64,000 nucleotides of DNA from positions 1 through 64,000 of the IMG/VR virus record IMGVR_UViG_3300048014_000015. The stretch is one strand, 5' to 3'. Origin of the DNA: a virus. The notes under the pieces are model-generated. The model worked only from the letters and a program-made list of their open reading frames with translations. It did no database searches and was not told the origin of the DNA. The stretch's first letter is position 1; each line of letters opens with the position of its first letter. The position numbers were made by a program, and so were the translations under genes. Shown piece after piece: positions 19,012 to 44,855 of the stretch.

Positions 19012-19035
19012 AATGTTTAACCCATGGGTTAGGTG

Positions 19036-19117
19036 TGGTAGTGGTGGGAATCGAACCCACAAGCTTTTCAGCGACCGATTTTAAATCGATTGTGTTTACC
19101 AGTTTCACCACACTACC
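19036..19117 (-). tRNA. tRNA-Leu (anticodon UAA), type II with long variable arm
   Basis: Manual cloverleaf: acceptor GGTAGTG/CACTACC, 3-bp D stem, anticodon loop TTTAAAA, variable arm GCT-GAAA-AGC, T arm GTGGG-TTCGATT-CCCAC. No encoded CCA. Confidence 0.85.
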
Positions 19118-19118
19118 G

Positions 19119-20675
19119 TTAAGAGAATACGATCTTTTTACGTTGGAGTCTTTTTCTTGGTTTATTTAACCTATATAACTCTGTTTTAGATTTTCTACCC
19201 ATTTGTTGTGGTGGTCCCTGTGGTCCCGCTTGTCCTATCTGTGGTACGCCTTGCGGTGGGGCTTGTTGTGGCATTTGTGCCTGCATATTTCCGACTTGAG
19301 ATACAATACCACTACCAATAGAGGGCTTCTTCCACTGTGATATCTCGTATACCTGATCTTCGTCTAGTGGTACACCCCATTCAAATAGCTTATCGGCATG
19401 TTCCATAAGTTGTGAGGCATTTGGATCATCAACATTAAAGGTAAATGTTCCTGGAGCAACACCGGGAGCATTGTAGGAATACAATACATTTACAAGATCG
19501 GATTGTATGGTTTCTTGTAGATCAACTGCGTGATATTTTACAATCTCGTCTAATGTCTCTCCATGTTGATCGGCAGTACCTGAACCTAATCCTGTCGCTT
19601 CTGCCTTACTAGACAAAGTTTGACCCTCAATAAACCTTTCCATTTTTGGATCAAAATAGTCGTTTACCAGTTTCCATAGTATATCCGAACTAGCTGCACT
19701 AACCTCTAATCTCTCCACCTTGTTTACATCTGGATTAGTGCTATTCCATCTAGGATAAAGTAATACAGTATTAGAAAATTGTGCTCTAGCTGCTGATTGT
19801 GCTTGCTGCATAGCCTGTGGATTGCCAGCATCATAGTAAAATATTGTTAATCCATTTGCAAACCTATGGATATAATTCATTAATTGGCCAAATACTTGTT
19901 GTTTTAGCCACCAGAACCAATACAACCTACCACGAACACCAACACCACCAATAGAACCAGCTAACTCAGGTTCAATAAAGTCGGCATCATCGGGTTCGTG
20001 CTGATGTATAATATACTGTATACGTTCATCAGGTGTTAAGAAGTGACACAATCCCCAATCGGTGGAAGTCTTTTCTCCTGGATAACCCGGATATACAAGA
20101 ACCCCCCATGTTTTAGCATCCCATTTAAGCCTTAATTTATCACCATTGATAGGTGTAAAATCTCTAACAAATATCTTTTGTTCACCCTTATAGTTACGCC
20201 ATTCATAATCTAGTTCAACAGCATACTTTCCATACCATATAGCTTGAAGTAACCACATCTTTAATCTTTGAAAATGTGGTATCTTCTTTATAATATAGGT
20301 ATTCATTTTCGCCGCTTCTACTTCGGCGGGATTCGTCTCATCGTCTGGTTTCAGTGACCAACCAACTTGAGCTACGGGACGCCAGATCCTTAACAACGCT
20401 CCCCACAAAGTAGGGTCACGTTTCATAGCTATAGCGTTTGTATAGCTATCTCTTAACGCCTCATCTGAAGTGTATAAAAATGCTCTGGATGCACTACGAA
20501 CTAGAGAGGAGAACGATAGGAAATTAGGTATACTATATCTGCCACCCCCTGGAGGTAGTCCACCCGGATCGCTAGGAGTGGGACCGGGATAACCTAACTC
20601 TTGTGCTGTAAATCCCCCAGATTCTACACTCCAGGGAGGATTTACAGAAGAGTTGGGATTGTTATTATCAGACAT
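19119..20675 (-). CDS. putative portal protein
   Basis: 518 aa, downstream of the large terminase. Gln/Pro-rich basic C-terminal tail. The call rests on size and position, with weak resemblance to Mu gp29/DUF935-type portals. Confidence 0.55.
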   Translation of the reverse strand: MSDNNNPNSSVNPPWSVESGGFTAQELGYPGPTPSDPGGLPPGGGRYSIPNFLSFSSLVRSASRAFLYTSDEALRDSYTNAIAMKRDPTLWGALLRIWRPVAQVGWSLKPDDETNPAEVEAAKMNTYIIKKIPHFQRLKMWLLQAIWYGKYAVELDYEWRNYKGEQKIFVRDFTPINGDKLRLKWDAKTWGVLVYPGYPGEKTSTDWGLCHFLTPDERIQYIIHQHEPDDADFIEPELAGSIGGVGVRGRLYWFWWLKQQVFGQLMNYIHRFANGLTIFYYDAGNPQAMQQAQSAARAQFSNTVLLYPRWNSTNPDVNKVERLEVSAASSDILWKLVNDYFDPKMERFIEGQTLSSKAEATGLGSGTADQHGETLDEIVKYHAVDLQETIQSDLVNVLYSYNAPGVAPGTFTFNVDDPNASQLMEHADKLFEWGVPLDEDQVYEISQWKKPSIGSGIVSQVGNMQAQMPQQAPPQGVPQIGQAGPQGPPQQMGRKSKTELYRLNKPRKRLQRKKIVFS

Positions 20676-20921
20676 TTAGTAATTACCTAATATTCTTTCT
20701 TCAATAATTGTAGGTTCTTCTATGGTCTCTTTTGTATCAACTTTCTCAACAGAATAACAAATGAATAATCGTAAATTTGGATTTACTATATCTTGTTTAA
20801 TTTTTTCCAAAAGCTTTTCAAAGTCCTCTTTTTGAGAGAGACTTACATACCTACTTATATACTTATAGTTATGTGTGATAGGTTTATTGTCCTGTGGTGG
20901 AACTGGTGGCTGTTGATCCAT
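20676..20921 (-). CDS. hypothetical protein
   Basis: 81-aa ORF abutting the portal start. Confidence 0.5.
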   Translation of the reverse strand: MDQQPPVPPQDNKPITHNYKYISRYVSLSQKEDFEKLLEKIKQDIVNPNLRLFICYSVEKVDTKETIEEPTIIEERILGNY

Positions 20922-21117
20922 TGTCTACTTTTCCATTAGGGTTTGGTTTTGTATATCCTATTGATTTAGCTACCGCTAGTATTTCCGAGTATGCCAGATA
21001 TCTTTTCTTTTCTTTCTTTTGGTATCTCTCTATAGCTTTAATAAACTCCATTTCTTCTTCAGTGTAGTCAAAATTATCTGAATACCATAGACTACGATTA
21101 GCTGGAGAGATACCCAT
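20884..21117 (-). CDS. hypothetical protein
   Basis: 77-aa ORF. TTAACCTATAAGGA motif lies upstream. Confidence 0.5.
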   Translation of the reverse strand: MGISPANRSLWYSDNFDYTEEEMEFIKAIERYQKKEKKRYLAYSEILAVAKSIGYTKPNPNGKVDNGSTATSSTTGQ

Positions 21118-21153
21118 ACTATATTCCTTATAGGTTAATACTATATCCTATAG

Positions 21154-21525
21154 TTATGGTGCCCCAATTATCGTATACCTAATTCTACCGGTAAGCGTAC
21201 CAGATGAATTGGTAATTGATAGTGAACATCCGGGATCACAATCATACTGACCGCCAAAACCCGGTCCATCATGGCTACCTAGAACCACATTACTGCTAGC
21301 AGTTAATTGGAGAATATCTAGTGCTCTTGTTGGGAATGGTCCCCCTACACTCTGAATAGTAACAGTTGTAGTTCCACTAGCTGATAGGTCTAATCCCAGT
21401 ACACGTATAAAAGCTAATGCATATGGTGGTGGTGGGTTGAGTAGGGTAGTTGTGGGACCGGGAGCAGGAATAATAGTTGCAGTTGTTGCACCCATATTGA
21501 CTAGAATACTATTCGGATCGGGCAT
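21154..21525 (-). CDS. hypothetical protein
   Basis: 123-aa Thr/Gly/Pro-rich ORF. TTTAACCTAAAC...AAGGA leader. Confidence 0.55.
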   Translation of the reverse strand: MPDPNSILVNMGATTATIIPAPGPTTTLLNPPPPYALAFIRVLGLDLSASGTTTVTIQSVGGPFPTRALDILQLTASSNVVLGSHDGPGFGGQYDCDPGCSLSITNSSGTLTGRIRYTIIGAP

Positions 21526-21568
21526 ATCTCAATCCTTTTAGTTTAGGTTAAATACTATACCCGGTATT

Positions 21569-21949
21569 TTAGATTATATCTTCTTGATCCCACTTAGATG
21601 GAGGATTGTTCGTTTGTGGTGGGTAGTCATCTTTATTGGTATCATCACCAAGATCGTTTATTTGATATTCGATATCTCTTTCTAGCACCTTATGTATCAT
21701 TAGTTCTTCCTTATGTATTTCTTTAAGAACGGTAAAGTCCACAACATACGCCGCTATAATCTCACTTAATAATATAAAATTTGGTGTATTAGATATATTA
21801 TTAACACTCACGTATTTGCGTGATGGTGTTGTTCTACCTAATTCACTCGTAATATTTGTAACGTTGTTCTCTGCTTGTGACCTATCTTTACAATATACTG
21901 TTAACTGTCCATTTTTAGTCCACACACAAGTTGCCCATTTGTATTTCAT
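21569..21949 (-). CDS. hypothetical protein
   Basis: Start moved to the internal ATG (MKYKWATCVW) at 21949, abutting the stop of the upstream gene (21951). Confidence 0.55.
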   Translation of the reverse strand: MKYKWATCVWTKNGQLTVYCKDRSQAENNVTNITSELGRTTPSRKYVSVNNISNTPNFILLSEIIAAYVVDFTVLKEIHKEELMIHKVLERDIEYQINDLGDDTNKDDYPPQTNNPPSKWDQEDII

Positions 21950-21950
21950 C

Positions 21951-22595
21951 TTAACTCCAATATAATGGATCACTAGAAAATCTATAACGACTAGCTTGTC
22001 TACGTTTAGAAAATCTACCTGGCTCGTCATTCTCTATTAAGTGGTCAATCAACATATGTCGGGGTGAGTCTTCATGTGGGTTCTCTAGAACTGCCTTTCC
22101 TAGCTGTTCTGACTCGGAAGTGTGAGGTAGGTTATAAGAATGAAGTCCTTGAGCTCCATTACCTATACCCCTGGTTGTATGTCTGCCATCGGGTGCCCTA
22201 TAATCTATTATTATGCGTTTACCATGTGGATGCTCTGGGTCATGTATTTGATTTAATAAAACGTGGTGACCATTTATATTTAAAAACATTCCACCTCTAA
22301 CCATATTTTCTAGTAAATCTCGGTATCTGCCATACATTATTAAATTTGTATTGTGTTGATCTTCGTTATCGTATTCGTCCCAAGGATAACCTACGTGTTC
22401 CTGGTGGTTTTTGGACAATACCCTATAACCTGTATTAGGAAAATCTTCATGACTATCAAACTTACCCCTGATAAAAAGGTAGTCGTGATATGCTCCTGGA
22501 ATATGTACCTGAGTCCTTGACTCATGACCTAAATCTTCAGTTTTAGTTATAGCATTTAATCTATTTAGATGTTCTCTTATCTGTGGTGGTATCAT
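21951..22595 (-). CDS. hypothetical protein with a degenerate C-terminal TIGR02996-like motif
   Basis: C-terminus reads LENPHEDSPRHMLIDHLIENDEP. Confidence 0.6.
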   Translation of the reverse strand: MIPPQIREHLNRLNAITKTEDLGHESRTQVHIPGAYHDYLFIRGKFDSHEDFPNTGYRVLSKNHQEHVGYPWDEYDNEDQHNTNLIMYGRYRDLLENMVRGGMFLNINGHHVLLNQIHDPEHPHGKRIIIDYRAPDGRHTTRGIGNGAQGLHSYNLPHTSESEQLGKAVLENPHEDSPRHMLIDHLIENDEPGRFSKRRQASRYRFSSDPLYWS

Positions 22596-22613
22596 AAAAC
22601 ACCCATCTTAATG

Positions 22614-24323
22614 TTAGGTTATATCCCCCCTATCCCACTTAGAAGGACTAGTACTACTTGAAGTACCACCTCCATTAATACCGAAGAAATTCCATCTATT
22701 GGGGGCACCAACTAAAGAGTTTGGCAGCAGCATTATATCACTGTTGTCAACGTGTCTGGTATCTCCTAATACTGGTCTAAGTTTATTAGGATTGGGTACA
22801 GATTCAGGACCAACAGATAGCGGAACACCTTCTGGAAATGCATGTAATAACCCCATGCCTATGGTTACACATCTATCATCGTGTCTTCCCGCCTCATGGT
22901 CGAATCTATAACCCCACATAGTAGGTTTGGTAATGAGCATTGATAATTCTTGTTCTAATGTCTGATCTTCTATAGGTATAATACGACCATTTTCTACATA
23001 ATGTTGTGGTAACCTACCAGCATCTGGCGACCATGATACCATTCTATTCTGAATAGAGGTCTTCAATATTTGTGCCATACGGTAGTTAGCTTTCCCCCCC
23101 CTATACTCGAATCTAATAACACGTATACCAATTCTTTCGTAGTATATCGCTAGTCCTTCCATTTGTGCAGGGTCGACTATCAATGCTGATAGGTTAAAAT
23201 TTTTCCTAACAACCTCTATCCATGCCTGTACGCTCCTGCCTTCCATATACCTAGGATCATTGTAGTTATCTTGTAATATAGGTATTCTTAATTCATGCGT
23301 ACCTTGCCAGCAATCGAGACGATCTACGATAGCTTTATTAGTTTCTGGTTCTAGGTGCATAACACCTAACGAACACCTATCACGAACACCCCCATAGTCA
23401 ACAACTGCGTAGTACTGGGTGTATCGTCCTCCATATGTACGCTCCCTAAGGTTGAAGTCCCTACATTTTAGACATTCTTCTTCAGTTAGGTATCCATGTT
23501 CTTCTCCTGGATCAACCCATCTATTTTTATATAGTCTATCACGTTCTCCGGGCATCATACCTTGAGATGCATCGGCTATCTTTGAATCATCCATCCACGA
23601 TGGTAGCGGCTTACCTACTGGTGCTTCAAAGAACGACCAGTATTTAGATTTTTCACACCTATTGCGTTCTTTCCATTGCCAGCTACCTTTCAATCCTGCA
23701 TTCGTGCTAACAACTAATACACAGTATGGACGTTTATTTATTGAACCTAATATAAATGACTCCCAAAATAATTTACTCTCTTCATGCTGCCAGTGTGTAA
23801 GTTCCTCAACTACAATCATATCTGGGAATGCTCCAGATTGTGTATATGCATTTTTTGTTAGAACAGATAACTCACCCCCACTACTACCAACAGCCTTTAA
23901 GTCGGATACCTGCATTCTTTCAGCTATCCAAGGATTATCAGAACATATACCTCTCATGGCTTTTGTAATGAGACTTGCTTGATCTTCTGTACCAGCACAC
24001 ACAACTATATTTAATCTCCTCCTACTCCAACCAAGTAACCAACACAATTGCCTTGCTGTCTCATGTGTCTTATCACTACCCTTGTGATAACCATTCCAGA
24101 ACCACCTAGGACCATTATAGGTATTATTAATCCCAGCTAAAGAATCTATAGCTGGTGCAACCCTCATACTGCGTTCCCATTGCCATCGTTCTGCAATGAG
24201 ACGGAATACTAGTTTCTTTGGTTGTGCGTCTACCACAACGTGAGATAGGAAATTCAAATAACCTAGCGAACTTTCGTAAGCAGCTAGGTTATAAATTTCT
24301 TCTAGTGTACTTTGTTCAGACAT
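22614..24323 (-). CDS. terL: terminase large subunit
   Basis: Deviant Walker A (HKGSDKT), Walker B (DMIVVEELTHW), and C-terminal RNase-H-like nuclease acidic residues (YAVVDYGG, LIVDP, RHDDRCV). Confidence 0.8.
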   Translation of the reverse strand: MSEQSTLEEIYNLAAYESSLGYLNFLSHVVVDAQPKKLVFRLIAERWQWERSMRVAPAIDSLAGINNTYNGPRWFWNGYHKGSDKTHETARQLCWLLGWSRRRLNIVVCAGTEDQASLITKAMRGICSDNPWIAERMQVSDLKAVGSSGGELSVLTKNAYTQSGAFPDMIVVEELTHWQHEESKLFWESFILGSINKRPYCVLVVSTNAGLKGSWQWKERNRCEKSKYWSFFEAPVGKPLPSWMDDSKIADASQGMMPGERDRLYKNRWVDPGEEHGYLTEEECLKCRDFNLRERTYGGRYTQYYAVVDYGGVRDRCSLGVMHLEPETNKAIVDRLDCWQGTHELRIPILQDNYNDPRYMEGRSVQAWIEVVRKNFNLSALIVDPAQMEGLAIYYERIGIRVIRFEYRGGKANYRMAQILKTSIQNRMVSWSPDAGRLPQHYVENGRIIPIEDQTLEQELSMLITKPTMWGYRFDHEAGRHDDRCVTIGMGLLHAFPEGVPLSVGPESVPNPNKLRPVLGDTRHVDNSDIMLLPNSLVGAPNRWNFFGINGGGTSSSTSPSKWDRGDIT

Positions 24324-24328
24324 ATTTA

Positions 24329-24340
24329 CTATAGGTTAAT
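24329..24340 (-). promoter_or_regulatory. TTAACCTATAG leader motif upstream of terL
   Basis: Gene-sense ATTAACCTATAG ends 5 nt before the ATG at 24323. One of more than 20 copies of this motif in the window. Confidence 0.5.
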
Positions 24341-24372
24341 AGGACAAGAACTTAATATCTATATTGCCATCT

Positions 24373-24975
24373 CTAAATAGACTCCCCAGTATCTATGAAC
24401 TTAATATCTATATTATATTTACTTTTTATCTTAATAATTGGCCTTATACTAATGTCATTAGCTCTCCTGTTCGTTCCGTTTCTCCTAACTATTATATACT
24501 TAATAGGGTGGGCAGTTATGGGACAAGGAATACCCATAGATGGATGCCAAACTATCTTGGGAATCACATTAAAAAATTTACTACAATCTACTTGTATTTT
24601 TTCTACAAATCCTCTACTAAAACTAACCCTACTTTGAGGAATGTAACCATATATATTGTTAGGTATATTAAGGGATTGTAACTTATGTAATATTTCATCT
24701 TGTTTTTCTAGTAATTCTACCGATATGTGATACCATTTCATAGTATCTAGTATCGACATACCATTATCAACTACTACCCCCACTAATTTATTATCTTTTC
24801 TAGGTTGTGTTAGTTTATTGTGATTAGACAACTCTATTGATACCTTGATAAATTCCCCATACATCTTATCTACTTCGCTATCGCTATCCAGTAGGTAGTC
24901 TGCATACATTAATCTGGGAACATCCTCATCCCTATTCATTATCACACTAGTTAATAGTTCTTGACGTTCTGTCAT
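24373..24975 (-). CDS. TIGR02996-like (repeat-companion) domain protein
   Basis: N-terminus EDVPRLMYADYLLDSDSEVDKMYGEFIKVSIELS. Confidence 0.7.
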   Translation of the reverse strand: MTERQELLTSVIMNRDEDVPRLMYADYLLDSDSEVDKMYGEFIKVSIELSNHNKLTQPRKDNKLVGVVVDNGMSILDTMKWYHISVELLEKQDEILHKLQSLNIPNNIYGYIPQSRVSFSRGFVEKIQVDCSKFFNVIPKIVWHPSMGIPCPITAHPIKYIIVRRNGTNRRANDISIRPIIKIKSKYNIDIKFIDTGESI

Positions 24976-24997
24976 AGTAATTCAGTAGGTTAGGTAT

Positions 24998-25093
24998 TTA
25001 TCCAATTATTCTAAATACAGTGATACAAATAATAATTACTGACACTACTACTACACACCCCCAATCATTAGAACTATTATTTTCATTATTCAT
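24998..25093 (-). CDS. possible 31-aa hydrophobic peptide
   Basis: MNNENNSSNDWGCVVVVSVIIICITVFRIIG. ATGA start/stop overlap with the upstream zinc-ribbon gene. Too short to be sure. Confidence 0.25.
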   Translation of the reverse strand: MNNENNSSNDWGCVVVVSVIIICITVFRIIG

Positions 25094-25317
25094 AATTCCC
25101 CTCTACCCTTTAAATCATTGAACAATACTATGAACAACTTATAACATTCATCACATAAACTAACTTTATCCTCTGGCATACTACCAAAATTTCTCTCTGC
25201 TTCCGCCACCTTTAGGTACTCAGGCATAGAATTAAGAAATACATCATTACATAAGCCACAGGTGAATTCATTCATTGGCGGCTTATTTAAGGAATCCATC
25301 ATCCCAAGATACCCCAT
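25090..25317 (-). CDS. small zinc-ribbon protein
   Basis: CGLC...x28...CDEC cysteine pairs in a 75-aa ORF. Confidence 0.6.
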   Translation of the reverse strand: MGYLGMMDSLNKPPMNEFTCGLCNDVFLNSMPEYLKVAEAERNFGSMPEDKVSLCDECYKLFIVLFNDLKGRGEL

Positions 25318-25369
25318 ATTCCTCAGTTTTCTTGGCTAGATTGTAAATTCACATAAACATATAGAACAG

Positions 25370-25492
25370 TGCCTCTGGTGGGTCTCGCAGCCCACAAGTA
25401 CAATACACTTCTAGATTTTCACTAGTTAAGTTATATAGTATTGTACCAAACGGGTCTTAACCGCTCCGCTTTACTAATTTGCGTACAGAGGC
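25370..25492 (-). ncRNA. 123-nt tRNA-like element (non-canonical; possible pseudo-tRNA or tRNA with a ~50-nt inserted arm)
   Basis: Perfect 7-bp acceptor GCCTCTG/CAGAGGC plus A. 3-bp D stem. Anticodon-like arm AGCGG-TTAAGAC-CCGTT. 10-bp extra arm GGTACAATAC/GTATTGTACT. T-like arm GTGGG-CTGCGAGA-CCCAC with an 8-nt loop and no TTC. Confidence 0.45.
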
Positions 25493-25496
25493 ATAG

Positions 25497-25569
25497 TCTT
25501 CCCGGTGCGACTTGAACGCACAACATACGTCTTAGAAGGACGTTACTCTATCCATTGAGTTACGGTAGG
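25497..25569 (-). tRNA. tRNA-Arg (anticodon UCU), weak acceptor stem
   Basis: D arm ACTC-AATGGATA-GAGT, anticodon arm ACGTC-CTTCTAA-GACGT, T arm GTGCG-TTCAAGT-CGCAC. Acceptor CCTACCG/CGGGAAG pairs only 5 of 7. Confidence 0.6.
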
Positions 25570-25659
25570 GGGAGGAATTGCACCTTCCGACCGCTTAGCT
25601 TCTATCTATACATAGTATACATAGTACAGATTTAGGTTCGCGGTCTCTATGGCCTACCG
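25563..25659 (-). ncRNA. 97-nt tRNA-like element lacking a D arm
   Basis: Perfect 7-bp acceptor CGGTAGG/CCTACCG. 6-bp helix GACCGC/GCGGTC enclosing an 8-bp hairpin ATCTGTAC/GTATAGAT. T-like arm GGAAGG-TGCAATT-CCTCCC. Its 3' strand is the same 7 nt used as the 5' acceptor strand of tRNA-Arg. Confidence 0.4.
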
Positions 25660-25662
25660 ATA

Positions 25663-25733
25663 TCCGCCCTGATGGAATTGAACCATCATTCGCAGCTTAT
25701 AAGACTGCCGTTCTGCCATTGAACTAAGGGCGG
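25663..25733 (-). tRNA. tRNA-Ile (anticodon UAU)
   Basis: Manual cloverleaf: acceptor CCGCCCT/AGGGCGG, D arm GTTC-AATGGCA-GAAC, anticodon arm GCAGT-CTTATAA-GCTGC, T arm GATGG-TTCAATT-CCATC. 71 nt. Confidence 0.85.
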
Positions 25734-26354: not shown

Positions 26355-26375
26355 TTGACAGTATCACACTGTCAA
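26355..26375. promoter_or_regulatory. symmetric TTGACAG-N7-CTGTCAA element (TTGACA on both strands)
   Basis: ttgacagtatcacactgtcaa, embedded in a larger imperfect palindrome (caataggtta...taacctattg) at 26346-26389. Confidence 0.5.
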
Positions 26376-26877: not shown

Positions 26878-26916
26878 ATAGGTTAATTGTATAATATGTA
26901 TACAATTAACCTATAA
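26878..26916. repeat. 39-bp palindrome carrying the TTAACCTATA motif on both arms
   Basis: tataggttaattgtata-atatg-tatacaattaacctata, with 17-bp perfect arms. Lies between terS and the small-gene cassette. Confidence 0.85.
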
Positions 26917-28257: not shown

Positions 28258-30678
28258 CTATACAATGTTGTTTAGGTTATATTCCTGACCTATTGACCTA
28301 ACTTGATTGTATAACGTCTTAAATGCACTTGTCAAGCGGAATCTAGCAGTTCTTACAGGAAATGGCAGATGGGTCGGAACATATTGTTCCATAACACCGA
28401 TCCTAGGTAAGTACATTAACAAAGATTCCATATCCCTTAAATTTTTACCACACCTACTAGCTAAAGTCTTAGGCTCTAACCCCTCATCTCCATCACTACT
28501 AGCATCTAACAACACCCTCACTAAATCCATAGCCCAACCATCGCTGGTATCTAGTGCAACCTTATAGGTTATTGCAACTACCTGCCTATCTATAGGTCGT
28601 TGCATTACCAAAGCTAAAAACCTAATGAGTTTTACTAGTTGCTTTGATACACGAGCAGGGAGAGACTTTTCAGCAAAGCTTTCTAGACTGGAATTCCTGG
28701 ATGGTCTGCCTCTCATACGCTCAATAAACTTAGCTAATGTACCTAGCTTTACTAACACATCATATGGAACCCCAGGTAAGGTAAGACTATTAGTATCTAC
28801 ACCTAACCTAAGATAGTTTATATATCCGCCAGTTAGTTGTCTAGCTCTGAGATAGTCAGGGTTATCTACACTCTCAGCAGAACCAGTTACTACACCTGAC
28901 CCAGCTTGTTCTTGCATAGCTTTCATAACAATGTCGTCTTCTAACCTATCACTAATTCCCTTTACAATTATATAGTCAATAAATCTTGGACCTAGTTCGG
29001 TATCGTCAAAGTATTTAATCCGTGGAGTACCAGCTAATAACCACGTTCCCCGCCAACCTGAGTACGACCGTTTAATTGAGTTATTGTACACTTTTTCAAT
29101 CTCTCCATCATATATAGCCCTAGCTTGTCCTATTATCTCCTCTGCTCTAGGATGAGTAACAAGTGTTGCGCCTTCCTTGGTAATCAAACATTTGTCGAAC
29201 CATCGAGCTACTAAAGAATGATCCTTACCATCTCCCAAATCCATACCTGAAAAGAAACCATTCATACCATCGTTAAGTATTGTATAACGATCATTTGTTC
29301 CTAGTGCTTTACACAATTGAGATTTATAGGTTGATGGCGGAGATACTAACCTAACCCAAAGAGGCTCACCAACTCCTCTGACAGAGCTAACACAAGCGAG
29401 CGAAACAGCCAGGGCACCATGTAACTCGGGTGTCCACTTAGCCGCTAACTTGAATGAGTCTGTTAGCTCATTCCACGAATTACACTCAATAGGTCTAATT
29501 CGACCAACACCAACATTAGAACCACTACTAGAATTATTTGAACTACTAGAACTTGAACCTACAGGAGTATTAGAACTAAGCAACCATTCACCAGGAACAG
29601 GACGAACATAAGACAGCAATTTACCTATATCCTTTCCATCTTTAATCCAATCCCTCACATCGTATTTATCAGGTATATCTGGATCATATCCCTTACCGTC
29701 TAAATTCCAATCCAACCACGACACGGACAAGGGATGACTTGAACTATCATTCTGACTAGCCATTATTCCTACAGCACGTTTAGTACCTGATAGTGATGGT
29801 TGATAGGTAGTCTTAGTCTTCTCGTTAACCTTTGGATGGTCGTTATCGTATAGAAAAACAACATGCTTATTAGCAATATACCTAACCCAACCCTTATTGA
29901 ATATCCCACACCCTGGAACACCTATCACCACATAATTACCGTTAGGTTTATTCCTCTCAAAAGAACTACCTGTATTTGAACCTAACACACTATCTAAAGC
30001 TACAGCATCCCAAACACCCTCACAGATATATATGGTTTCAGCTTCTTGTAGTTCCGTAGTGATGGCAGAACTACCGTTAACTATTCTAGGCAGATGGATA
30101 CCGTGAGATTCACCCTCAGTGAATCCGGGAGTAATCCACAGTTCGTACCGTGGGGTTCCATCAGGTTTATTCTTCTGACGAGTACGGCGATATAATTGAA
30201 CTATGTTCGGTGGGTGCTTTACCCCATATCCAGGTACTAGCCAATCACCAGTAATAACGCTCTTACATATACCCCATCGTCTGAGAGACTCAACAGATAG
30301 CCTTCTATCCGTGGATAGCTCTTGATAGTCTATAGGTTTGGTATTGGTGTAGGAAATTCTCCACAAATATTTGATAAAACCGTAGTGATTACCTGTGATC
30401 GGGTCGTTCTTATCATCTTTGTACTGATCCTGCCAGTTGCAAACCTTACAATCACTCCGAGAGGTGTTTGTATCGATGTAAAATTTAGGCTTATCACAGA
30501 ACGGACAAATAGCCAACCACTCTCGGGTATCTCTGCGAACAAACTCGACACCATGGAACCGATAGGGGAAGATAGCCCTAGGCTCTGTGGTGGGGTTCCC
30601 ACTACTACTACTAGCTGACTGGCTCTGTGATAGGTTTGCAGCAGGGATACTAGGGGTAGGGGTATCTTTCTGTGGCAC
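28258..30678 (-). CDS. DNA primase (zinc finger + TOPRIM) with a large C-terminal helicase-like/unknown domain
   Basis: CPFC...x17...CKVC zinc motif. TOPRIM residues IYICEGVWDAVAL and FLYDNDHP. The C-terminal 400 aa have only a degenerate P-loop-like SPPSTYKS. Confidence 0.8.
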   Translation of the reverse strand: MPQKDTPTPSIPAANLSQSQSASSSSGNPTTEPRAIFPYRFHGVEFVRRDTREWLAICPFCDKPKFYIDTNTSRSDCKVCNWQDQYKDDKNDPITGNHYGFIKYLWRISYTNTKPIDYQELSTDRRLSVESLRRWGICKSVITGDWLVPGYGVKHPPNIVQLYRRTRQKNKPDGTPRYELWITPGFTEGESHGIHLPRIVNGSSAITTELQEAETIYICEGVWDAVALDSVLGSNTGSSFERNKPNGNYVVIGVPGCGIFNKGWVRYIANKHVVFLYDNDHPKVNEKTKTTYQPSLSGTKRAVGIMASQNDSSSHPLSVSWLDWNLDGKGYDPDIPDKYDVRDWIKDGKDIGKLLSYVRPVPGEWLLSSNTPVGSSSSSSNNSSSGSNVGVGRIRPIECNSWNELTDSFKLAAKWTPELHGALAVSLACVSSVRGVGEPLWVRLVSPPSTYKSQLCKALGTNDRYTILNDGMNGFFSGMDLGDGKDHSLVARWFDKCLITKEGATLVTHPRAEEIIGQARAIYDGEIEKVYNNSIKRSYSGWRGTWLLAGTPRIKYFDDTELGPRFIDYIIVKGISDRLEDDIVMKAMQEQAGSGVVTGSAESVDNPDYLRARQLTGGYINYLRLGVDTNSLTLPGVPYDVLVKLGTLAKFIERMRGRPSRNSSLESFAEKSLPARVSKQLVKLIRFLALVMQRPIDRQVVAITYKVALDTSDGWAMDLVRVLLDASSDGDEGLEPKTLASRCGKNLRDMESLLMYLPRIGVMEQYVPTHLPFPVRTARFRLTSAFKTLYNQVRSIGQEYNLNNIV

Positions 30679-30826
30679 TTTGGTACTACCTCTCTCGTAA
30701 AAACTGGGGTCGGTAAACAGTCGTGGAGAATTTTTCGGAAACTTTTTTCCTGCTCAAAAACACTGGAATTTCTGGCGTATTCGCAGATTCCGAAAGAGCA
30801 TTAGGTGAAAAAACAAACTCCTGATA

Positions 30827-30855
30827 TTGACAGTTAGCAGCTGTCGGCTTAAAAA
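30827..30855 (+). promoter_or_regulatory. sigma70-like promoter with dyad (TTGACAG-N7-CTGTC), -10 TAAAAA
   Basis: TTGACA 30827-30832, 17-nt spacer, TAAAAA 30850-30855. Faces the GC-rich island. Confidence 0.55.
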
Positions 30856-30884
30856 GATCTTACCACAGTGGTCAAGGTGATCCA

Positions 30885-30928
30885 CTGGGGGAATTAACCT
30901 ATCACAGTTTTGAGGGGAAGTCATGGCA
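30885..30928 (+). repeat. partial copy of the island cassette-boundary repeat
   Basis: ctggggaattaacctatcacagttttgaggggaagtcatggca is identical to 31222-31265, including RBS, ATG and the first codons (MAR). Confidence 0.85.
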
Positions 30929-31159
30929 AGGGCACTGGTCAACGCGAACGAGTTCATCGGTCGCAACGCGAAGATGGACGCTCTGCTCCGATACGTCTTC
31001 GAGACCTGTGAAAGGCCGCACGGCCTCAATCCGGGCACGCTTCAGGTCTGGGAGGCGATGATGTTCCTTGGTGTCGTGAACTGCGGTGCAGACGGCCGAG
31101 CATGGCTTTCTGAGGGCGGCAAGGAACTGTTCAAGCTGGCGGATCGTGGGTCAAGGTGA
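30923..31159 (+). CDS. hypothetical protein (GC-rich island ORF A, 78 aa)
   Basis: GAGGGGA RBS 5 nt upstream of the ATG. GC-rich codon usage unlike the backbone. Confidence 0.6.
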   Translation: MARALVNANEFIGRNAKMDALLRYVFETCERPHGLNPGTLQVWEAMMFLGVVNCGADGRAWLSEGGKELFKLADRGSR

Positions 31160-31164
31160 GTAAA

Positions 31165-31245
31165 AACAGGTGTGACCAGCGGCAGGTAGGTGCAAGCCCT
31201 ATCCACACCTCTCCCCAATGTCTGGGGAATTAACCTATCACAGTT
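31165..31245 (+). repeat. 81-bp cassette-boundary repeat, copy 1
   Basis: aacaggtgtgaccagcggcaggtaggtgcaagccctatccacacctctccccaatgtctggggaattaacctatcacagtt. One mismatch to 32258-32338. Contains AGGTGTG/CACACCT and CCCCA/TGGGG stems. Confidence 0.9.
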
Positions 31246-31258
31246 TTGAGGGGAAGTC

Positions 31259-32245
31259 ATGGCACGGGTCGAACAGTACTTGCCGGTTGGAACAGTGGTC
31301 ACCGCTCGCCCACAGGGAGGAAAGGCGATTGAATGGACCACAAAAAGGGAGGTGACAATCGCGGATCATGTCCAACAGGATTGCCCGCTCGGGGGCAAGA
31401 CAAAAACCCTCACCGGAACTTTTCTTCGCGACCGTCAATGCACGGTCAGCGGTGTGGAAATTTGGTTCTCGGCCCGATCACTCCGTCAGAGAATCGCGGT
31501 GGACAAGTGGGAGGTCTGTGATGATGCATACAACCACCAACTCACCAAAATCGACTACGATATCCCGACTTCTTTGGGGCAGGCGTACGCAGTGAGCGTA
31601 GCCGCTGAACTCCACAAAATTGGTGTCCGTTCATCAAATTCCTGTTGGTTTGTCCGCACCGGAGATACTCCCTACTATCTGTTAGGAGAGATGGAAGAGA
31701 TGGGCGTACGCAAAGTTAGTGCCGACAGGATTGACCCATCAGAGACAAAAAAGTTGATTGCTCGAATGATAGTCGAATTGTCCGAGCAAGTAGAAAAATA
31801 CGTTCGGGGGGCTAATGAGACTCTCGTGTCGGCAACGGCGAAGTTGCAAGAGTCACAAGAGAATGGAATAGATGAGGAGAAGGCGGTCAACGACTGCCTG
31901 ATAGCTGCTAAAGCTTTGGAAAAGAGGTTGGAAAAATACAAGGAACAAATGCTCGCTGGAGCGAACAAACTGGGGATTCGCTCTTCGGCATGGAATGCTG
32001 ACAGGCTATCACAGATTGCTCAGGTGACGGGCAGTGAGCTACGAAAACGGGCAGCAGCATACAAACGAGCGGCGGATATCCTAGTGCAGAGTACAGATAC
32101 TGATTTGCACGCGGCTGGCATAGTCGCACAAGTATCAGCCCTACCAGCGGGGGTCATGGCTGATATTCTTCGCGAAGCTGGACATGAATCGGCAGCGGAA
32201 GAATTGACCGCTGAATACTCACTCCTGGATACACTGGGTGATTAG
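31259..32245 (+). CDS. hypothetical protein (island ORF B, 328 aa, C-terminal coiled-coil-like half)
   Basis: Same leader and RBS as ORF A. Long ORF in the only sensible frame. No recognisable motif. Confidence 0.7.
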   Translation: MARVEQYLPVGTVVTARPQGGKAIEWTTKREVTIADHVQQDCPLGGKTKTLTGTFLRDRQCTVSGVEIWFSARSLRQRIAVDKWEVCDDAYNHQLTKIDYDIPTSLGQAYAVSVAAELHKIGVRSSNSCWFVRTGDTPYYLLGEMEEMGVRKVSADRIDPSETKKLIARMIVELSEQVEKYVRGANETLVSATAKLQESQENGIDEEKAVNDCLIAAKALEKRLEKYKEQMLAGANKLGIRSSAWNADRLSQIAQVTGSELRKRAAAYKRAADILVQSTDTDLHAAGIVAQVSALPAGVMADILREAGHESAAEELTAEYSLLDTLGD

Positions 32246-32257
32246 TACAGGAGTTAG

Positions 32258-32338
32258 AACAGGTGTGACCAGCGGCAGGTAGGTGCAAGCCCTACCCACA
32301 CCTCTCCCCAATGTCTGGGGAATTAACCTATCACAGTT
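32258..32338 (+). repeat. 81-bp cassette-boundary repeat, copy 2
   Basis: Identical to 31165-31245 except one base (t/c). Followed by a 7-bp duplication (cacagtt). Confidence 0.9.
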
Positions 32339-32374
32339 CACAGTTTTGAGCAACCCCTGACTGGAGACTGACCC

Positions 32375-32692
32375 GTGACGACCGACACCATGACCATGAC
32401 CCTGCAATCGTTCCTCGCCGAGCATGCGATCTGCCGCGTGTGGTACGCGAGCGTCGCGTCCCCCGGCGGGAGCGAGTTGGTTCTCAACACCGACGACGAC
32501 TACTGCGACTCGCAATCTCTGCTGGAGACACCGCCGGTCCCGGCAGCCCTCGACCTGGGGGGCACCGTGACCCGCGACGCGGACGGCGAGTACCGCTGGA
32601 AGGTCGATTCGCTCGCGGGCGTGGACTTGCGGGACTGCGCCAGGTCCACCGTCTACGACCTGACCGTCTGGGGCGATGTCATTCAGGGCTGA
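32375..32692 (+). CDS. hypothetical protein (island ORF C, ~105 aa, very GC-rich)
   Basis: GTG start 9 nt after GGAGA; alternative ATGs at 32390 and 32396. Strong GC3 bias in this frame only. Confidence 0.6.
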   Translation: MTTDTMTMTLQSFLAEHAICRVWYASVASPGGSELVLNTDDDYCDSQSLLETPPVPAALDLGGTVTRDADGEYRWKVDSLAGVDLRDCARSTVYDLTVWGDVIQG

Positions 32693-33031
32693 CGACGACC
32701 GTCGCGAACACTATACGGACGGAGACCCGATCTACTCCGTCTGCAACCGCGACACGAATATTACTATCCTACTATCCTATCGTACATCATGTATAGGGTG
32801 TGTATCTCTGTGGGTGTCCAATGAATGTCAGACTATTAGAGAAGCTGTCGATCAGTGGCTAACTCACGGAGGGAGTGAGTGAGAAGACGGCTTACCAGGA
32901 AGTGGGATGAGGGTGGGGTTGTTGCCCTGCCCCCTTTAATCGTTTACAGGATGCTTCAGGATCGACGATCTACGTGCTGTGTGTGAAATCACTCAGGGGG
33001 ATAGCTCGAATCGATCCTGGAGTGAGTAAAC

Positions 33032-33925
33032 CTAACAGTAGGTAGAGTGGGGAGCAGGGAGCACTATAGGACGACACCTAGAACGTCTGATTAGATTAGA
33101 ATTAGATAAACGATCATTAGACTTATTAGTTTTAGAATGATCTATCTTAGAGTGCCCTACTTTAGAATGATCTACTTTAGAATCATCATCACTATTTGGT
33201 ATACCCCCTAACTTACCTATAACTAATTTATGTACTAATTTACGTATACCATCTTGAGCATTGTGTCCCATACTCCTTAACTTACGAATCTCTATAGGTG
33301 ATAACCAGGTAGTAACTGGTTTCTTCTTTTTATTAGGACTAATTTTAGGTTTACTATACTGTTTTAAACCTAACACAGTATTAGATTTGGTACTGTGTGG
33401 TAAACCGCATCGCTTTTGAGCGGTGGTTAGTACGACCCTCCTGGATTTCATATACCGCATCGCTGTATCTGATCGTCCCATCTTCATTGCGGCATCTAAT
33501 AGTTTTTTCCTACGATGTTCTGGTAGATTACCAAACTCATGAGCCGCTTCATCATCTAAACTTCTTCTACTACTATGTACTCTAGAATTAGCTGCGAGTG
33601 GTGGACCAACATCTGGTCCATGATGCATCCTAGCAAACCAATCTCCAGGTAGTTCGTCAGGTTGTGGTATATCTGTGTCATCGTATAACCAGTATCTCCA
33701 TCTATGGGGTATAAATGGTCCCTCTGAATAAAGATTATGATGTTCTTCAGGTTCACCACGATCACTATAAGCAGTAGGTATTTTACGCATTAAACCTAAT
33801 GCACGATAACCTTTTGCTCTTGGATCACCAATCTCCTCTAAGTGGTCAGCTAGTACCATCCTGGTATGATGGTCATCTGGATGTTGGTCTAAGTGAGCCT
33901 GCATAGCTTCTTCTGTATCTGTCAT
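33032..33925 (-). CDS. TIGR02996-like domain protein
   Basis: N-terminus EEAMQAHLDQHPDDHHTRMVLADHLEEIGDPRAKGYRALG. Confidence 0.75.
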   Translation of the reverse strand: MTDTEEAMQAHLDQHPDDHHTRMVLADHLEEIGDPRAKGYRALGLMRKIPTAYSDRGEPEEHHNLYSEGPFIPHRWRYWLYDDTDIPQPDELPGDWFARMHHGPDVGPPLAANSRVHSSRRSLDDEAAHEFGNLPEHRRKKLLDAAMKMGRSDTAMRYMKSRRVVLTTAQKRCGLPHSTKSNTVLGLKQYSKPKISPNKKKKPVTTWLSPIEIRKLRSMGHNAQDGIRKLVHKLVIGKLGGIPNSDDDSKVDHSKVGHSKIDHSKTNKSNDRLSNSNLIRRSRCRPIVLPAPHSTYC

Positions 33926-33964
33926 ATCTGCACCAACACTTTCTTGAAAGAAATAATATATAGG

Positions 33965-38037: not shown

Positions 38038-38066
38038 AGTATACCACGACAGCTACTATCTGTCAA
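38038..38066 (-). promoter_or_regulatory. sigma70-like promoter with dyad (TTGACAG-N7-CTGTC), -10 TATACT
   Basis: Minus sense reads TTGACA-gatagtagctgtcgtgg-TATACT. Confidence 0.65.
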
Positions 38067-41713: not shown

Positions 41714-41734
41714 ATGACATGTAGCAACTGTCAA
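41706..41734 (-). promoter_or_regulatory. sigma70-like promoter for the minus-strand replication operon
   Basis: Minus sense reads TTGACA-gttgctacatgtcatga-TATAGG. Its -10 overlaps the -10 of the plus-strand promoter. Confidence 0.45.
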
Positions 41735-42340: not shown

Positions 42341-42410
42341 ACACACCTATCCCCAGGAATACACACCTATCCCCAGGAATACATACCTATACCAGGAATA
42401 CATACCTATG
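42341..42410. repeat. ~3.5 copies of a 20-bp tandem repeat (acacacctatccccaggaat) running into the HNH start codon
   Basis: Two perfect copies (42341-42360, 42361-42380), one degenerate 19-nt copy, and a partial copy containing the ATG at 42408. Confidence 0.85.
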
Positions 42411-42812
42411 ATAGAATTCTATACCCAACTCAAAAAACTAGGACATAATACCTATTATGAATATCTCCAGTCCGATCACTGGAAGGAGTTCCGTAAAAAG
42501 TATTATAGGTCAAGAAAACGCAAATCATGTACACTATGTAAATCACGGAATGACATACACCTACACCATATAACCTACAATAGATTAGGGAGGGAACAGT
42601 TGAACGATGTTATACCTCTATGTGGGGAATGCCATGAACTAATACACGAACATTTGACTAATAAGTACCAAAGCAAGGTAGAACATACTAATTCCGTAAT
42701 CGCTCTCCTTAGAGCAGAACAACCCATTAGGGGTATACCGCTACATAGGTCCACCAATCGCCGTGGAAGAAGAGCTAGGGCCATAGGAATCGATCCTACT
42801 GAAGACCAATGA
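42408..42812 (+). CDS. HNH endonuclease
   Basis: CTLCKS...IHLHHITYNRLGREQLNDVIPLCGECHELIH (Cys4 + H-N-H). Confidence 0.8.
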   Translation: MIEFYTQLKKLGHNTYYEYLQSDHWKEFRKKYYRSRKRKSCTLCKSRNDIHLHHITYNRLGREQLNDVIPLCGECHELIHEHLTNKYQSKVEHTNSVIALLRAEQPIRGIPLHRSTNRRGRRARAIGIDPTEDQ

Positions 42813-42872
42813 ACCCCACATACCACCAGATAACCGGATATGTTATTTCTCTCAAAAAAGTTGCTTTGGGGC

Positions 42873-42901
42873 TGGACAGTGTGTAGCTGTCATGCTACTA
42901 T
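42873..42901 (+). promoter_or_regulatory. sigma70-like promoter with dyad (TGGACAG-N7-CTGTC), -10 TACTAT
   Basis: TGGACA 42873-42878, 17-nt spacer, TACTAT 42896-42901. Confidence 0.55.
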
Positions 42902-42979
42902 GTTACTGGTTAGGTAGGGAATTAACCTAACGAATACTTGATAGTTTGATTTAACCTATCACACTTTTGGAGTACTACG

Positions 42980-43762: not shown

Positions 43763-43778
43763 AAATTCCTCCCAGGTG
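43743..43778 (+). other. 14-bp perfect hairpin spanning the stop codon of 42980..43762
   Basis: cacctgggaggaat-ctgtaaaa-attcctcccaggtg. No T tract follows, so it is not a classical terminator. Confidence 0.8.
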
Positions 43779-43780
43779 GG

Positions 43781-43809
43781 TTGACAGCTACTAGCTGTCG
43801 GGATAGGAT
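43781..43809 (+). promoter_or_regulatory. sigma70-like promoter with perfect dyad GACAGCTA-C-TAGCTGTC, -10 TAGGAT
   Basis: TTGACA 43781-43786, 17-nt spacer, TAGGAT 43804-43809. Confidence 0.6.
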
Positions 43810-43871
43810 ACTCTCGCCTAGGTGGTTCCGCAGTGGTTTCACCAGGGCGAACACTCTAAAGGAGAAGAATC

Positions 43872-44105: not shown

Positions 44106-44172
44106 TCATTAACCTAACTGATATTTTTAAACCTAACCAACACCACCAACCTAACCTGATTCAGGGGATATC

Positions 44173-44811: not shown

Positions 44812-44826
44812 TTTCCTCCCAGTCAG

Positions 44827-44855
44827 TTGACGGTTGAGAGCAATCCCTATATCAT
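44827..44855 (+). promoter_or_regulatory. sigma70-like promoter (TTGACG-N17-TATCAT)
   Basis: Upstream of the ParB-like gene. Preceded by TTCCTCCCAG, as at 43766. Confidence 0.55.

Follow-up and report, generated by a model that had tools for sequence, protein, structure and literature searches.

The segment described here, positions 30827-33030 of the viral record IMGVR_UViG_3300048014_000015, carries three plus-strand open reading frames (ORFs A, B, and C) within a minus-strand replication region of a phage genome. All analyses refer to a stretch of 64,000 nucleotides (nt), hereafter the window, which represents nearly the whole of the 64,312-bp contig. Portal and terminase are among the proteins it encodes, together with a PD-(D/E)XK nuclease and an AAA_24 protein, and no integrase was detected among the window genes scanned. 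An original prediction read the segment as a single foreign island of three genes that stands behind phage regulatory signals, between genes for a primase on one side and for a TIGR02996 protein and a DNA polymerase on the other. Based on the evidence given below, we consider it probable, though by no means certain, that the segment is instead the phage group's own divergently transcribed accessory operon, a hyperplastic region between replication genes rather than one foreign insertion.

Composition and integrity of the locus

Among the flanking labels, that of the polymerase stands, as PolA with its exonuclease domain gives a solid family match. The other two are weaker than claimed: the primase is supported by PHROG matches with expect values (E) of 0.012-0.024, while the TIGR02996 match of the flanking gene (E 6e-6, 25.8 bits) stays below the cut-off of 29.05 bits.

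The foreign look of the segment, on the other hand, is real. Its guanine-plus-cytosine (GC) content is 0.545 compared to 0.388 in the remaining window; 1-kb windows at 31-33 kb reach 0.53-0.57, whereas most of the window lies at 0.34-0.41 and the flanks at approximately 0.37-0.40, and a peak of 0.69 (150-nt windows) is found over ORF C. Amongst all 2.2-kb windows the segment is the top outlier in tetranucleotide composition (L1 distance, z = 5.4). However, it is heterogeneous, as the caveat that ORF B is only moderately GC-rich had already indicated: the GC content at third codon positions (GC3) is 0.52 in ORF B, compared to 0.72 in ORF A and 0.90 in ORF C. Such heterogeneity argues against the acquisition of the block in one event.

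The composition changes abruptly at about 30.9 and 32.76 kb, with AT-rich phage-type sequence back from approximately 32757, which is what the joining of a GC-rich contig to an AT-rich phage during assembly might look like. A chimera at about 30.7 or 33.0 kb had been named as a possible refutation. However, two separate assembly records reproduce parts of the region at 100% identity. One of them (L004) corresponds to 31235-32287, the other (L090, 1398 bp) to 32208-33605, so that the latter runs from the end of ORF B through the following cassette and ORF C into the start of the AT-rich TIGR02996-like gene and thus crosses the right-hand GC/AT junction. Since, in addition, a native leader stands ahead of each GC-rich ORF and the layout is common to relatives, an assembly chimera is very unlikely, to the point of being negligible. 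BLASTN of the segment against 50,697 phage records gave no match.

A module shared with related phages

Relatives were reached via homologues of ORF B. Of these, L001 and L005 were taken from a pair of contigs filed within a Sphagnum balticum assembly, while the other two are a Logan contig (L091) and a 2.1-kb JGI contig (L003). Alignments of PolA and ORF B against IMG/VR revealed no relatives; against JGI metagenomes, the closest PolA was 39% identical, and an ORF B homologue was present in 0 of 80 loci.

A plus-strand module of elevated GC content occupies the same place in all four relatives (in L003 partly), with the primase side seen in three and both sides in two of them. In L001, the primase gene (6160-8385, minus) is followed by the plus-strand module (8400-13250) and then by the TIGR02996-like and PolA genes on the minus strand. 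The order in L005 is the same, with the TIGR02996-like ORF on the plus strand at the module end and PolA on the minus strand. The first part of both modules has a GC content of 0.47-0.57. In L091, ORF B is followed by small plus-strand ORFs and then by minus-strand genes including PolA and AAA_24.

Among the window, L001, and L005, amino acid identity is 44-51% for ORF B (43-51% across the relatives), 53-58% for the primase, 48-56% for gp216, 47-59% for gp190, and 69-72% for PolA. Because ORF B has co-diverged with the backbone genes and is syntenic as well, it is a core, vertically inherited gene and not a recent import. The notion of a single foreign three-gene island is therefore not supported. 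The remaining content of the module differs in every relative: instead of ORFs A, C, and the doubtful ORF D discussed below, there are a first gene of 191 or 208 amino acids (aa) and a gene of 202, 232, or 206 aa. The latter gene, located downstream of ORF B inside the primase-PolA module of L001, L005, and L091, has its homologue in the window (36-48% identity) at 42980-43762, in another plus-strand module and behind a diverged copy of the leader described below. This family of 260-aa proteins was thus relocated between leader-bearing modules.

Promoter, leader and intercistronic stem-loops

The promoter motif TTGACAG-N7-CTGTC, which the original prediction had placed at 30827, is present and turned out to be one of six such sites in the window (Table 1). 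With one mismatch allowed, eight matches (palindromes counted twice) were obtained at these six sites, while 0.38 were expected, and at all six a TAnnnT-like hexamer follows 17 nt after TTGACA. At 30827 the -10 candidate is TAAAAA (30850-30855), and as it lacks the final T, a consensus promoter scan misses this site. The modules of L001, L003, and L091 are headed by the same architecture, TTGACAG-N7-CWGTC-N4-TAnnnT. The palindrome within the promoter suggests a dimeric regulator that binds there, and by analogy the operon is presumably expressed early. Several transcription units of the window are headed by TTGACAG-N7-CTGTC sites, and the tRNA genes for Ile-UAU and Arg-UCU lie directly downstream of the promoter copy at 26375(-).

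Each ORF was further claimed to be preceded by one AT-rich leader. This holds for a 22-nt core, GGGGAATTAACCTATCACAGTT, with exactly three copies in the window (30888, 31224, and 32317; 0 expected). However, the full 27-mer is intact ahead of ORF A and ORF B only, while the third copy carries a 7-nt duplication (CACAGTT CACAGTT TTGAG), is divergent afterwards, and has lost the Shine-Dalgarno part. What had been missed is an 88-nt repeat with one copy behind ORF A and one behind ORF B (31158-31245 and 32251-32338, 97% identical); the 88-nt and 45-nt repeats start 9-16 nt past the two stop codons and extend to the next start codon. In a MAFFT alignment, the window box AACCTATCACA aligns with CCTNTCGCCCA boxes ahead of plus-strand genes of L001, L003, L005, and L091, the version in L003 being AACCTATCGCCCA. 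Two motifs are over-represented in the window: AACCTATCNC occurs 8 times (0.7 expected), and AATTAACCTA 13 times (0.58 expected), in both orientations and sometimes as inverted pairs. From the box alignment and these motifs it follows that the supposed phage-type leader is a native, clade-wide regulatory element. Thus the three genes indeed stand behind phage regulatory signals, of which both the promoter and the leader are native and conserved in the clade.

With respect to its mode of action, the leader may serve as a promoter for a modified polymerase, as an operator, or as a signal at the RNA level. Promoters for RNA polymerases of the T7/T3 type were considered, as AATTAACC... resembles the start of a T3 promoter, and rejected because PHROGs matched none of the 10 largest ORFs scanned to an RNA polymerase. 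In addition, the downstream half mismatches, and AATTAACCTA is bidirectional and forms inverted pairs. A TCSCCCAA box was likewise discarded, for it had no specific match in the window. Inverted pairs of AATTAACCTA are located at 26879-26913 and ~58046-58075, and two further copies (6540 and 7257) lie inside ORF 5343-7724 within the longer repeat AATTAACCTACRACGTTTAAATTGTCCAGGTTGA.

In every clade member, cistrons are separated by elements in the same order: a stem-loop after the stop codon, a conserved box, and a Shine-Dalgarno sequence. The stem-loops belong to two classes. Class 2 is known from two window copies and one copy of L005 (10583-10625). Compared to the latter, 3 of its 13 pairs show compensatory double changes and none is broken; the 5' bulge ACCAGCGGCA and the loop UG(C/U)AAGC are conserved, and of the differences that separate window copies 1 and 2, one converts a G-U into a G-C pair. 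Class 1 was analyzed in seven copies from the relatives (three in L001, three in L005, and one in L003; L091 by eye) and comprises 13 pairs, 7 of them with compensatory double changes, and an invariant apical CAUC(A/G)GGGAG. Both structures are well supported but not proven. Repeats analogous to the window cassettes were found in L001 and L005 as well, and cassette copies within one genome are nearly identical (97-100%).

The two covarying hairpin classes and the clade-wide leader are new. Rfam yielded no match at E ≤ 1 in 30000-34000 and only tRNAs in L001, L003, and L005. When the window, L006, L008, L010, and L012 were searched with a class-1 covariance model, no copy was detected, and the exact leader and class-2 hairpin patterns had no match in IMG/VR and GTDB genomes. 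At the downstream end of the operon, a GC-rich nested hairpin is possibly the ORF C cassette's own terminator. It is followed by a candidate intrinsic terminator, which a simple scan did not call, and by a strongly structured region that is a candidate for a convergent terminator.

Table 1. Features of the operon and associated elements in the window.
Feature	Position	Strand	Basis and remarks
Sigma-70-type promoter with embedded palindrome, TTGACA(G)-N7-CTGTC, 17-nt spacer	30827..30855	+	Sequence reading
Small stem-loop CCACAGTGG...CCACTGG, directly 5' of leader copy 1	30863..30888	+	Fold of 30827-30926, z = -1.3, not significant
Leader copy 1, GGGGAATTAACCTATCACAGTTTTGAGGGGAAGTC = box AACCTATCACA + Shine-Dalgarno GAGGGG	30888..30922	+	Repeat search
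ORF A, 78 aa, predicted small winged-helix protein (MarR-like winged helix-turn-helix)	30923-31159	+	GC3 0.72
Class-2 intercistronic stem-loop, copy 1, 9 nt past ORF A stop; outer stem AGGTGTG/CACACCT, 5' bulge ACCAGCGGCA, inner stem, loop TGCAAGC	31168..31210	+	Covariation vs. L005 copy
Small hairpin CCCCA-ATGTC-TGGGG, overlapping leader copy 2 (31224-31258)	31213..31258	+
ORF B, 328 aa, core gene of the module	31259-32245	+	Syntenic homologues in relatives
Class-2 intercistronic stem-loop, copy 2, 16 nt past ORF B stop	32261..32303	+	Part of 88-nt repeat
Small hairpin and leader copy 3 (CACAGTT twice, truncated after TTTTGAG)	32306..32350	+	Junction to ORF C cassette
ORF C, 105 aa (alternative ATG 32390, 100 aa), orphan	32375-32692	+	GC 0.67
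GC-rich nested hairpin right after ORF C stop codon	32701..32753	+	Fold z = -1.9; composition
Candidate intrinsic terminator, GGGUGGGGU-UGUU-GCCCUGCCC then CCUUUAAU	32911..32940	+	Fold z = -1.4, weak
Strongly structured region 3' of TIGR02996-like gene	32940..33031	-	Fold z = -3.8; 0/200 shuffles as stable
Fourth, diverged leader copy TTAACCTATCACACTTTTGGAG ahead of gene 42980-43762	42951..42972	+
Other TTGACAG-N7-CTGTC sites	26355-26375, 38048-38066(-), 41716-41734(-), 42873-42893, 43781-43799		Motif search
tRNA genes (span 19035..25733)	Leu-UAA 19035-19117, Arg-UCU 25496-25569, Ile-UAU 25663-25733	-
TIGR02996-like domains	33794-33907, 10268-10657, 7587-7700, 5282-5356	-	tblastn

ORF A and ORF C as lineage-specific genes

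ORF A is absent from the corresponding module of every relative. Its homologues (83 and 77% identical) were found only on short GC-rich metagenome contigs. Compared to the copy in L009, the ratio of non-synonymous to synonymous substitutions (dN/dS) is 0.31, so ORF A is under purifying selection. In this comparison, which concerns the one contig with DNA to compare, similarity begins exactly at the start ATGGCA, while the upstream DNA is unrelated. This suggests that ORF A was joined to the native leader at its start codon; ORF B starts with ATGGCA as well. Pfam gave no match for ORF A. An AlphaFold2 model, built from only three sequences, reached a predicted local distance difference test score (pLDDT) of 82, and Foldseek matched it to MarR structures (probability 0.99-1.0, TMq 0.63-0.70, E 0.03-0.1), hence we predict a small winged-helix protein.

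ORF C has no counterpart in any relative's module either. Its GC contents at the first, second, and third codon positions (GC1, GC2, and GC3) are 0.62, 0.49, and 0.90, and it contains no TTA, AGA, or ATA codon. As an overlapping frame of 118 aa (32440-32796) has a GC3 of 0.50 only, the originally proposed frame, for which a strong GC3 bias had been noted, is the coding one. To judge from its GC3 of 0.90, ORF C has the codon signature of a genome of approximately 65-70% GC. Among 5.8 billion protein clusters, ORF C matched nothing but itself. As to ORF D (32676-32882, 68 aa), its status as a gene is doubtful: its GC3 is 0.51, its PHROG matches are weak (E 0.025), and it has neither a homologue nor a counterpart in relatives. 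Pfam, PHROGs, NCBIfam, and PADLOC assigned none of ORFs A, B, C, and D to a family, and they yielded nothing in favor of the host-takeover or anti-defence role that had been suggested from the position of the genes.

Hence the foreign character originally ascribed to the whole block would apply to ORF A and ORF C. Given their lineage-specific presence, the GC-rich relatives of ORF A, and the GC3 of ORF C, the simplest reading would be that both were recently imported from a GC-rich pool.

ORF B and its Cas2-like domain

A profile search against 1.84 billion cluster representatives recovered 221 relatives of ORF B at E ≤ 1e-3, among them 113 at E ≤ 1e-10. Many of the 221 hold only the C-terminal two thirds. 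ORF B thus represents a common phage protein family, and the sole lead to its function is a Cas2-like domain. Pfam and PHROGs searches with 70 family members gave only scattered chance matches, no member bears an informative name, and Pfam found nothing in longer members with extra domains. The AlphaFold2 model of ORF B (pLDDT 93.6, pTM 0.82) comprises an N-terminal beta domain (1-80), a ferredoxin-like middle domain resembling Cas2 (95-157, YDIP...SxW), and a helical C-terminal domain (160-326). Foldseek with the whole protein against the PDB and BFVD revealed no match at E ≤ 0.001, while coiled-coil and pentatricopeptide-repeat matches of a PDB profile search were discarded as spurious.

The middle domain, in contrast, gave local Foldseek matches to at least six Cas2 structures (probability 0.96-0.97, 16-23% identity). 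Its modeled elements (strand 95-101, helix 104-119, strands 122-126 and 129-133, helix 139-147, strand 152-157) follow a Cas2-type fold. Conserved residues of the family are Y100, D101, P103, S128, and W130, of which D101 is near-invariant in 70 sequences and invariant in an alignment of 42 domain sequences. The best PDB sequence match of the domain profile was 1ZPW from T. thermophilus (E 0.24, aligned over YDIP...R..LS), which is a Cas2 protein (PMC10491678). However, no Pfam match was obtained even at E ≤ 10, the genes examined in the window and the other loci did not include cas1, and repeat searches of the modules revealed no CRISPR-like array. As modeled, the middle domain is therefore Cas2-like in fold but not a member of the Cas2 family. 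With Cas2/VapD nucleases (1ZPW, 4ES1, and 3OQ2; BPSL1038, PMC10491678) it shares the YDIP motif, in which the Asp that closes beta-1 is conserved, and the SxW/SxF motif on beta-3. ORF B differs from them in its extra N-terminal beta and long C-terminal helical domains and in a similarity that is statistically sub-threshold. One might speculate that ORF B is an early protein that binds or cleaves nucleic acid and is built on a Cas2-like domain.

Homologues of ORF B also occur in two unrelated phage contexts, L006/L007 (GC 0.54) and L008 (GC 0.68), where they have the local GC content and open a plus-strand operon. In all seven contigs examined, the gene belongs to an operon at a divergent junction. 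It is the first gene in L006/L007, L008, and L091, whereas in the window, L001, L005, and L003 one or two ORFs stand ahead of it.

Codon usage and tRNA genes

In 43 minus-strand backbone genes (GC3 0.26), the codons UUA, AGA, and AUA account for 42.4% of all Leu, Arg, and Ile codons. Their share drops to 5.9% in ORFs A, B, and C (GC3 0.63; Fisher p = 2.5e-16) and to 22.1% in a second plus-strand module at 42.4-47.5 kb (GC3 0.39; p = 6e-14). The three avoided codons are exactly those read by the phage tRNAs Leu-UAA, Arg-UCU, and Ile-UAU. Such A-ending codons are rare in GC-rich bacteria, and the host of the phage is probably a GC-rich planctomycete (Planctomycetota). According to Bailly-Bechet and colleagues in 2007, phage tRNA genes reportedly compensate for a codon usage that mismatches the host. 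The window shares with this scheme an AT-rich phage, tRNAs for A-ending codons, and gene classes that differ in their use. However, the contrast is extreme and local here and is confounded with the horizontal origin of two of the three genes. That the codons supplemented by phage tRNAs are avoided almost completely offers a natural test of whether phage tRNAs partition translation over time, with early genes served by host tRNAs and late genes by phage tRNAs.

Since the GC content of ORF B is raised in all relatives, its composition is long-standing and not that of a recent import. At identical residues, four-fold degenerate sites are near saturation between the genomes (0.28-0.33 identical compared to 0.24-0.26 expected). 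Nevertheless, the GC content at such sites (GC4) is 0.36-0.51 in ORF B, whereas primase and PolA of these genomes have 0.18-0.26, and the offset is retained in L091 with its GC-richer backbone (0.59 in ORF B, 0.43 in PolA). An offset that persists despite near-saturated sites suggests that the GC excess of ORF B reflects a maintained pressure.

Origin of the operon

The closest known parallel is provided by the PeSL cassettes, repeated units of a stem-loop and an early promoter that T4-type phages carry between small variable genes of their hyperplastic regions (Arbiol et al., 2010, PMC2839356; Comeau et al., 2014, PMC4122927). Recombination between PeSL copies leads to indels, replacements, and mini-circles (PMC2839356, PMC4122927). 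As in PeSLs, the units described here recur in the gaps between genes, behind one stop codon and ahead of the next Shine-Dalgarno sequence and start codon, their stem-loops contain G/C tracts and cluster around ORFans in a variable region between core genes, and they are associated with gene replacement and relocation among relatives. However, the phage is not T4-like (~64 kb, PolA-type replication), and its internal cassettes carry a clade-specific leader box instead of a recognizable sigma-70 promoter. Furthermore, there are two hairpin classes with sequence-invariant loops, which suggests specific recognition rather than generic termination.

Within the accessory operon that we favor, transcription would start at the palindrome-bearing promoter, and each cistron is preceded by a composite cassette of stem-loop, clade-conserved leader box, and ribosome-binding site. 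The stem-loops would work on the transcript, be it as attenuators, terminators, or processing or stability signals. By analogy to PeSLs, the near-identical cassettes could serve as substrates for homologous recombination, by which genes would be swapped, inserted, and relocated. ORF B is the vertically inherited core, with ORF A and ORF C as lineage-specific cargo whose donors, to judge from composition and distribution, might be the host or GC-rich phages that infect it. The codon avoidance would fit translation by a GC-rich host tRNA pool before phage tRNAs build up. If so, the segment would be a compact example of cassette-mediated gene exchange in a phage lineage unrelated to T4, and a presumed foreign island would become a testable model of how the first-expressed genes are laid out in an AT-rich phage of a probably GC-rich and poorly studied host.

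Several points weigh against this interpretation. A consensus scan of 30500-33200 found no sigma-70-type promoter and hence none in the internal cassettes, which, having no detectable sigma-70-like -35 and -10 elements, are not full PeSLs; TTGACA-17-TAnnnT was found instead at the operon head (30827), at 42873, and at 43781. Compared to shuffled sequences, the fold energies of the hairpins are not significant (z 0.5 to -1.9), so that the case for them is one of covariation among few related sequences (three lineages for class 1, two for class 2). Recombination between the cassettes is deduced by analogy, early expression from promoter type and analogy, and the planctomycete host assignment leans on the sub-threshold TIGR02996 match. 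With respect to ORF B, a rough decay estimate indicates that a GC4 of ~0.37-0.45 could also remain from a gene transferred long ago by a very GC-rich donor, which makes selection and incomplete amelioration inseparable on these figures. Its GC1 of 0.60 compared to ~0.49 in the backbone shows that amino acid composition contributes as well. Moreover, operons of the relatives hold AT-rich, TTA-rich small ORFs (a 68-aa ORF of L001 has a GC3 of 0.35 and 5 TTA), which speaks for a mosaic of ages rather than for codon selection across the operon.

Among the alternatives, the originally proposed one, by which the whole block is a moron array recently acquired from a GC-rich host or phage, could draw on its being the strongest compositional outlier of the window, on the GC3 and missing homologues of ORF C, on relatives of ORF A that occur on GC-rich contigs in other contexts, and on the lack of a family assignment for any of the three products. 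We nevertheless consider it unlikely, since the synteny of ORF B and the module extends to four relatives, ORF B is as diverged as the backbone, and promoter, leader box, and hairpin classes are native elements conserved in the clade. Morons are autonomous units of promoter, gene, and terminator, usually in the late regions of temperate phages; they are said to have been described for lambdoid and other temperate phages by Juhala and colleagues and by Hendrix and colleagues, both in 2000. ORF A and ORF C resemble them as extra genes of deviant composition that are missing between the same neighbors in relatives. In contrast to morons, however, this cargo lies behind a shared native leader in a polycistronic module, no own promoter was detected before ORF B or ORF C (although ORF C might have a terminator hairpin), and the genes scanned include no integrase. 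The label thus suits ORF A and ORF C only loosely and ORF B not at all. The repeats that border each ORF are also reminiscent of the cassette boundaries of an integron-like array, or of another site-specific cassette array or inserted mobile element. However, as the original prediction had stated for integrases and transposases, the ORF list, Pfam, and PHROGs reveal neither of these nor a recombinase in the region or beside it; each repeat is a leader plus a hairpin in direct orientation that lacks attC-like inverted core sites, and the same architecture is native to all relatives, which renders such an array highly improbable.

A further alternative dispenses with horizontal transfer altogether and explains the GC-richness of entirely native genes by immediate-early codon adaptation to a GC-rich host tRNA pool. 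The avoidance of exactly the three codons read by phage tRNAs, the weaker but similar trend in the second plus-strand module behind TTGACAG promoters, and a GC offset that ORF B retains in every lineage although its synonymous sites are saturated would fit well, and in about half of the phages examined in one study, early and late genes differ in codon usage (PMC5683454). Yet ORF A and ORF C are found in no relative, GC1 and GC2 are raised along with GC3, AT-rich cistrons lie inside the same operon in relatives, and the similarity of ORF A to an unrelated GC-rich contig stops precisely at the start codon. For the segment as a whole, we thus regard adaptation as a rather improbable explanation. 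The same low likelihood is given to the idea that ORF B is a Cas2/VapD-like endoribonuclease or RNA-binding protein that processes or stabilizes the early transcript via the hairpins, although its fold, a beta-1 strand that ends in YD(I/V)P with a near-invariant Asp, the invariant loops and bulges on covarying stems, as would be expected of protein-recognized RNA, and the co-occurrence of hairpins and ORF B in 5 of 5 clade sequences are all in line with it. On the other side, hairpins were not found beside the ORF B homologues of L006 and L008, and the likeness to Cas2 is sub-threshold by sequence and local by structure, in a fold type that is very common.

Functional parallels for such processing exist in the RNase III sites of the T7 early region and in RegB of T4. 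The RNase III processing sites between T7 early genes resemble the present case in that conserved intercistronic hairpins with an asymmetric internal loop occur in an early operon transcribed by the host RNA polymerase. However, the stems predicted here measure only ~13 bp, their sequences are unrelated, and they have no match in Rfam. What is new besides the hairpins and the leader is a large ORF B family with a Cas2-like domain and, on the reading of the codon counts given above, an island codon usage that is complementary to the phage tRNA set. It would be a long shot, yet one of some consequence, that ORF B founds an unrecognized and widespread phage family acting either in hairpin-linked RNA processing or anti-termination or as a Cas2 decoy, and that the cassettes are a PeSL-like gene-shuffling device outside the T4 group. 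In the former case, ORF B and the covarying hairpins would control the early operon by processing or anti-termination; in the latter, ORF B would sequester host Cas1 and thereby block spacer acquisition.

Further features of the window and of related contigs

The second plus-strand module of the window (42408-47522) is GC-elevated (0.40-0.46; GC3 0.39). The classical PeSL layout occurs at 43740-43800, where a stem-loop directly adjoins a TTGACAG promoter, and the product of ORF 43872-44105 matches the Pfam Gin zinc ribbon just under the cut-off (E 7e-6). A second compositional outlier is a 192-aa ORF at 52037-52615 on the minus strand (GC 0.50, GC3 0.52), whose late-region neighbors have a GC3 of ~0.2-0.3.

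With a related ORF of L005 as tblastn query, a TIGR02996-like N-terminal domain was detected in at least four window ORFs, which look like a paralogous family within one phage genome. The TIGR02996 domain is expanded in planctomycetes of the Gemmata type, and the phage paralogues mirror this.

In L005 (15196-18180), PolA has 994 aa compared to 703 aa in the window; the insertion of ~290 aa starts with CCDGDTEILT and is probably an intein. In L001 (8386-9299) and L005 (8977-10000), the primase gene is separated from the first plus-strand gene by a GC-rich stretch (0.48-0.53) of ~0.9-1 kb without an ORF of at least 60 aa. Both share the block CCCACACTGACTGATCTTTGACAACTTA, while the window has only 244 bp at this place, and the stretch could hold a non-coding RNA or extra promoters. 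In L001, a tandem repeat of 12/18 nt (AGTAGGATTAGG...) at 11791-11898 lies within an 88-aa ORF and encodes repeats of the SRIRSGS type.

The underlying phage contigs, CBCUEQ010001185.1 (L001/L002) and CBCUEQ010001146.1 (L005), are filed as Sphagnum balticum and carry spliced gene models in the eukaryotic style. One contig of 80,460 bp contains the same locus twice, 65,307 bp apart, and thus represents a concatemer of a phage genome of ~65.3 kb.

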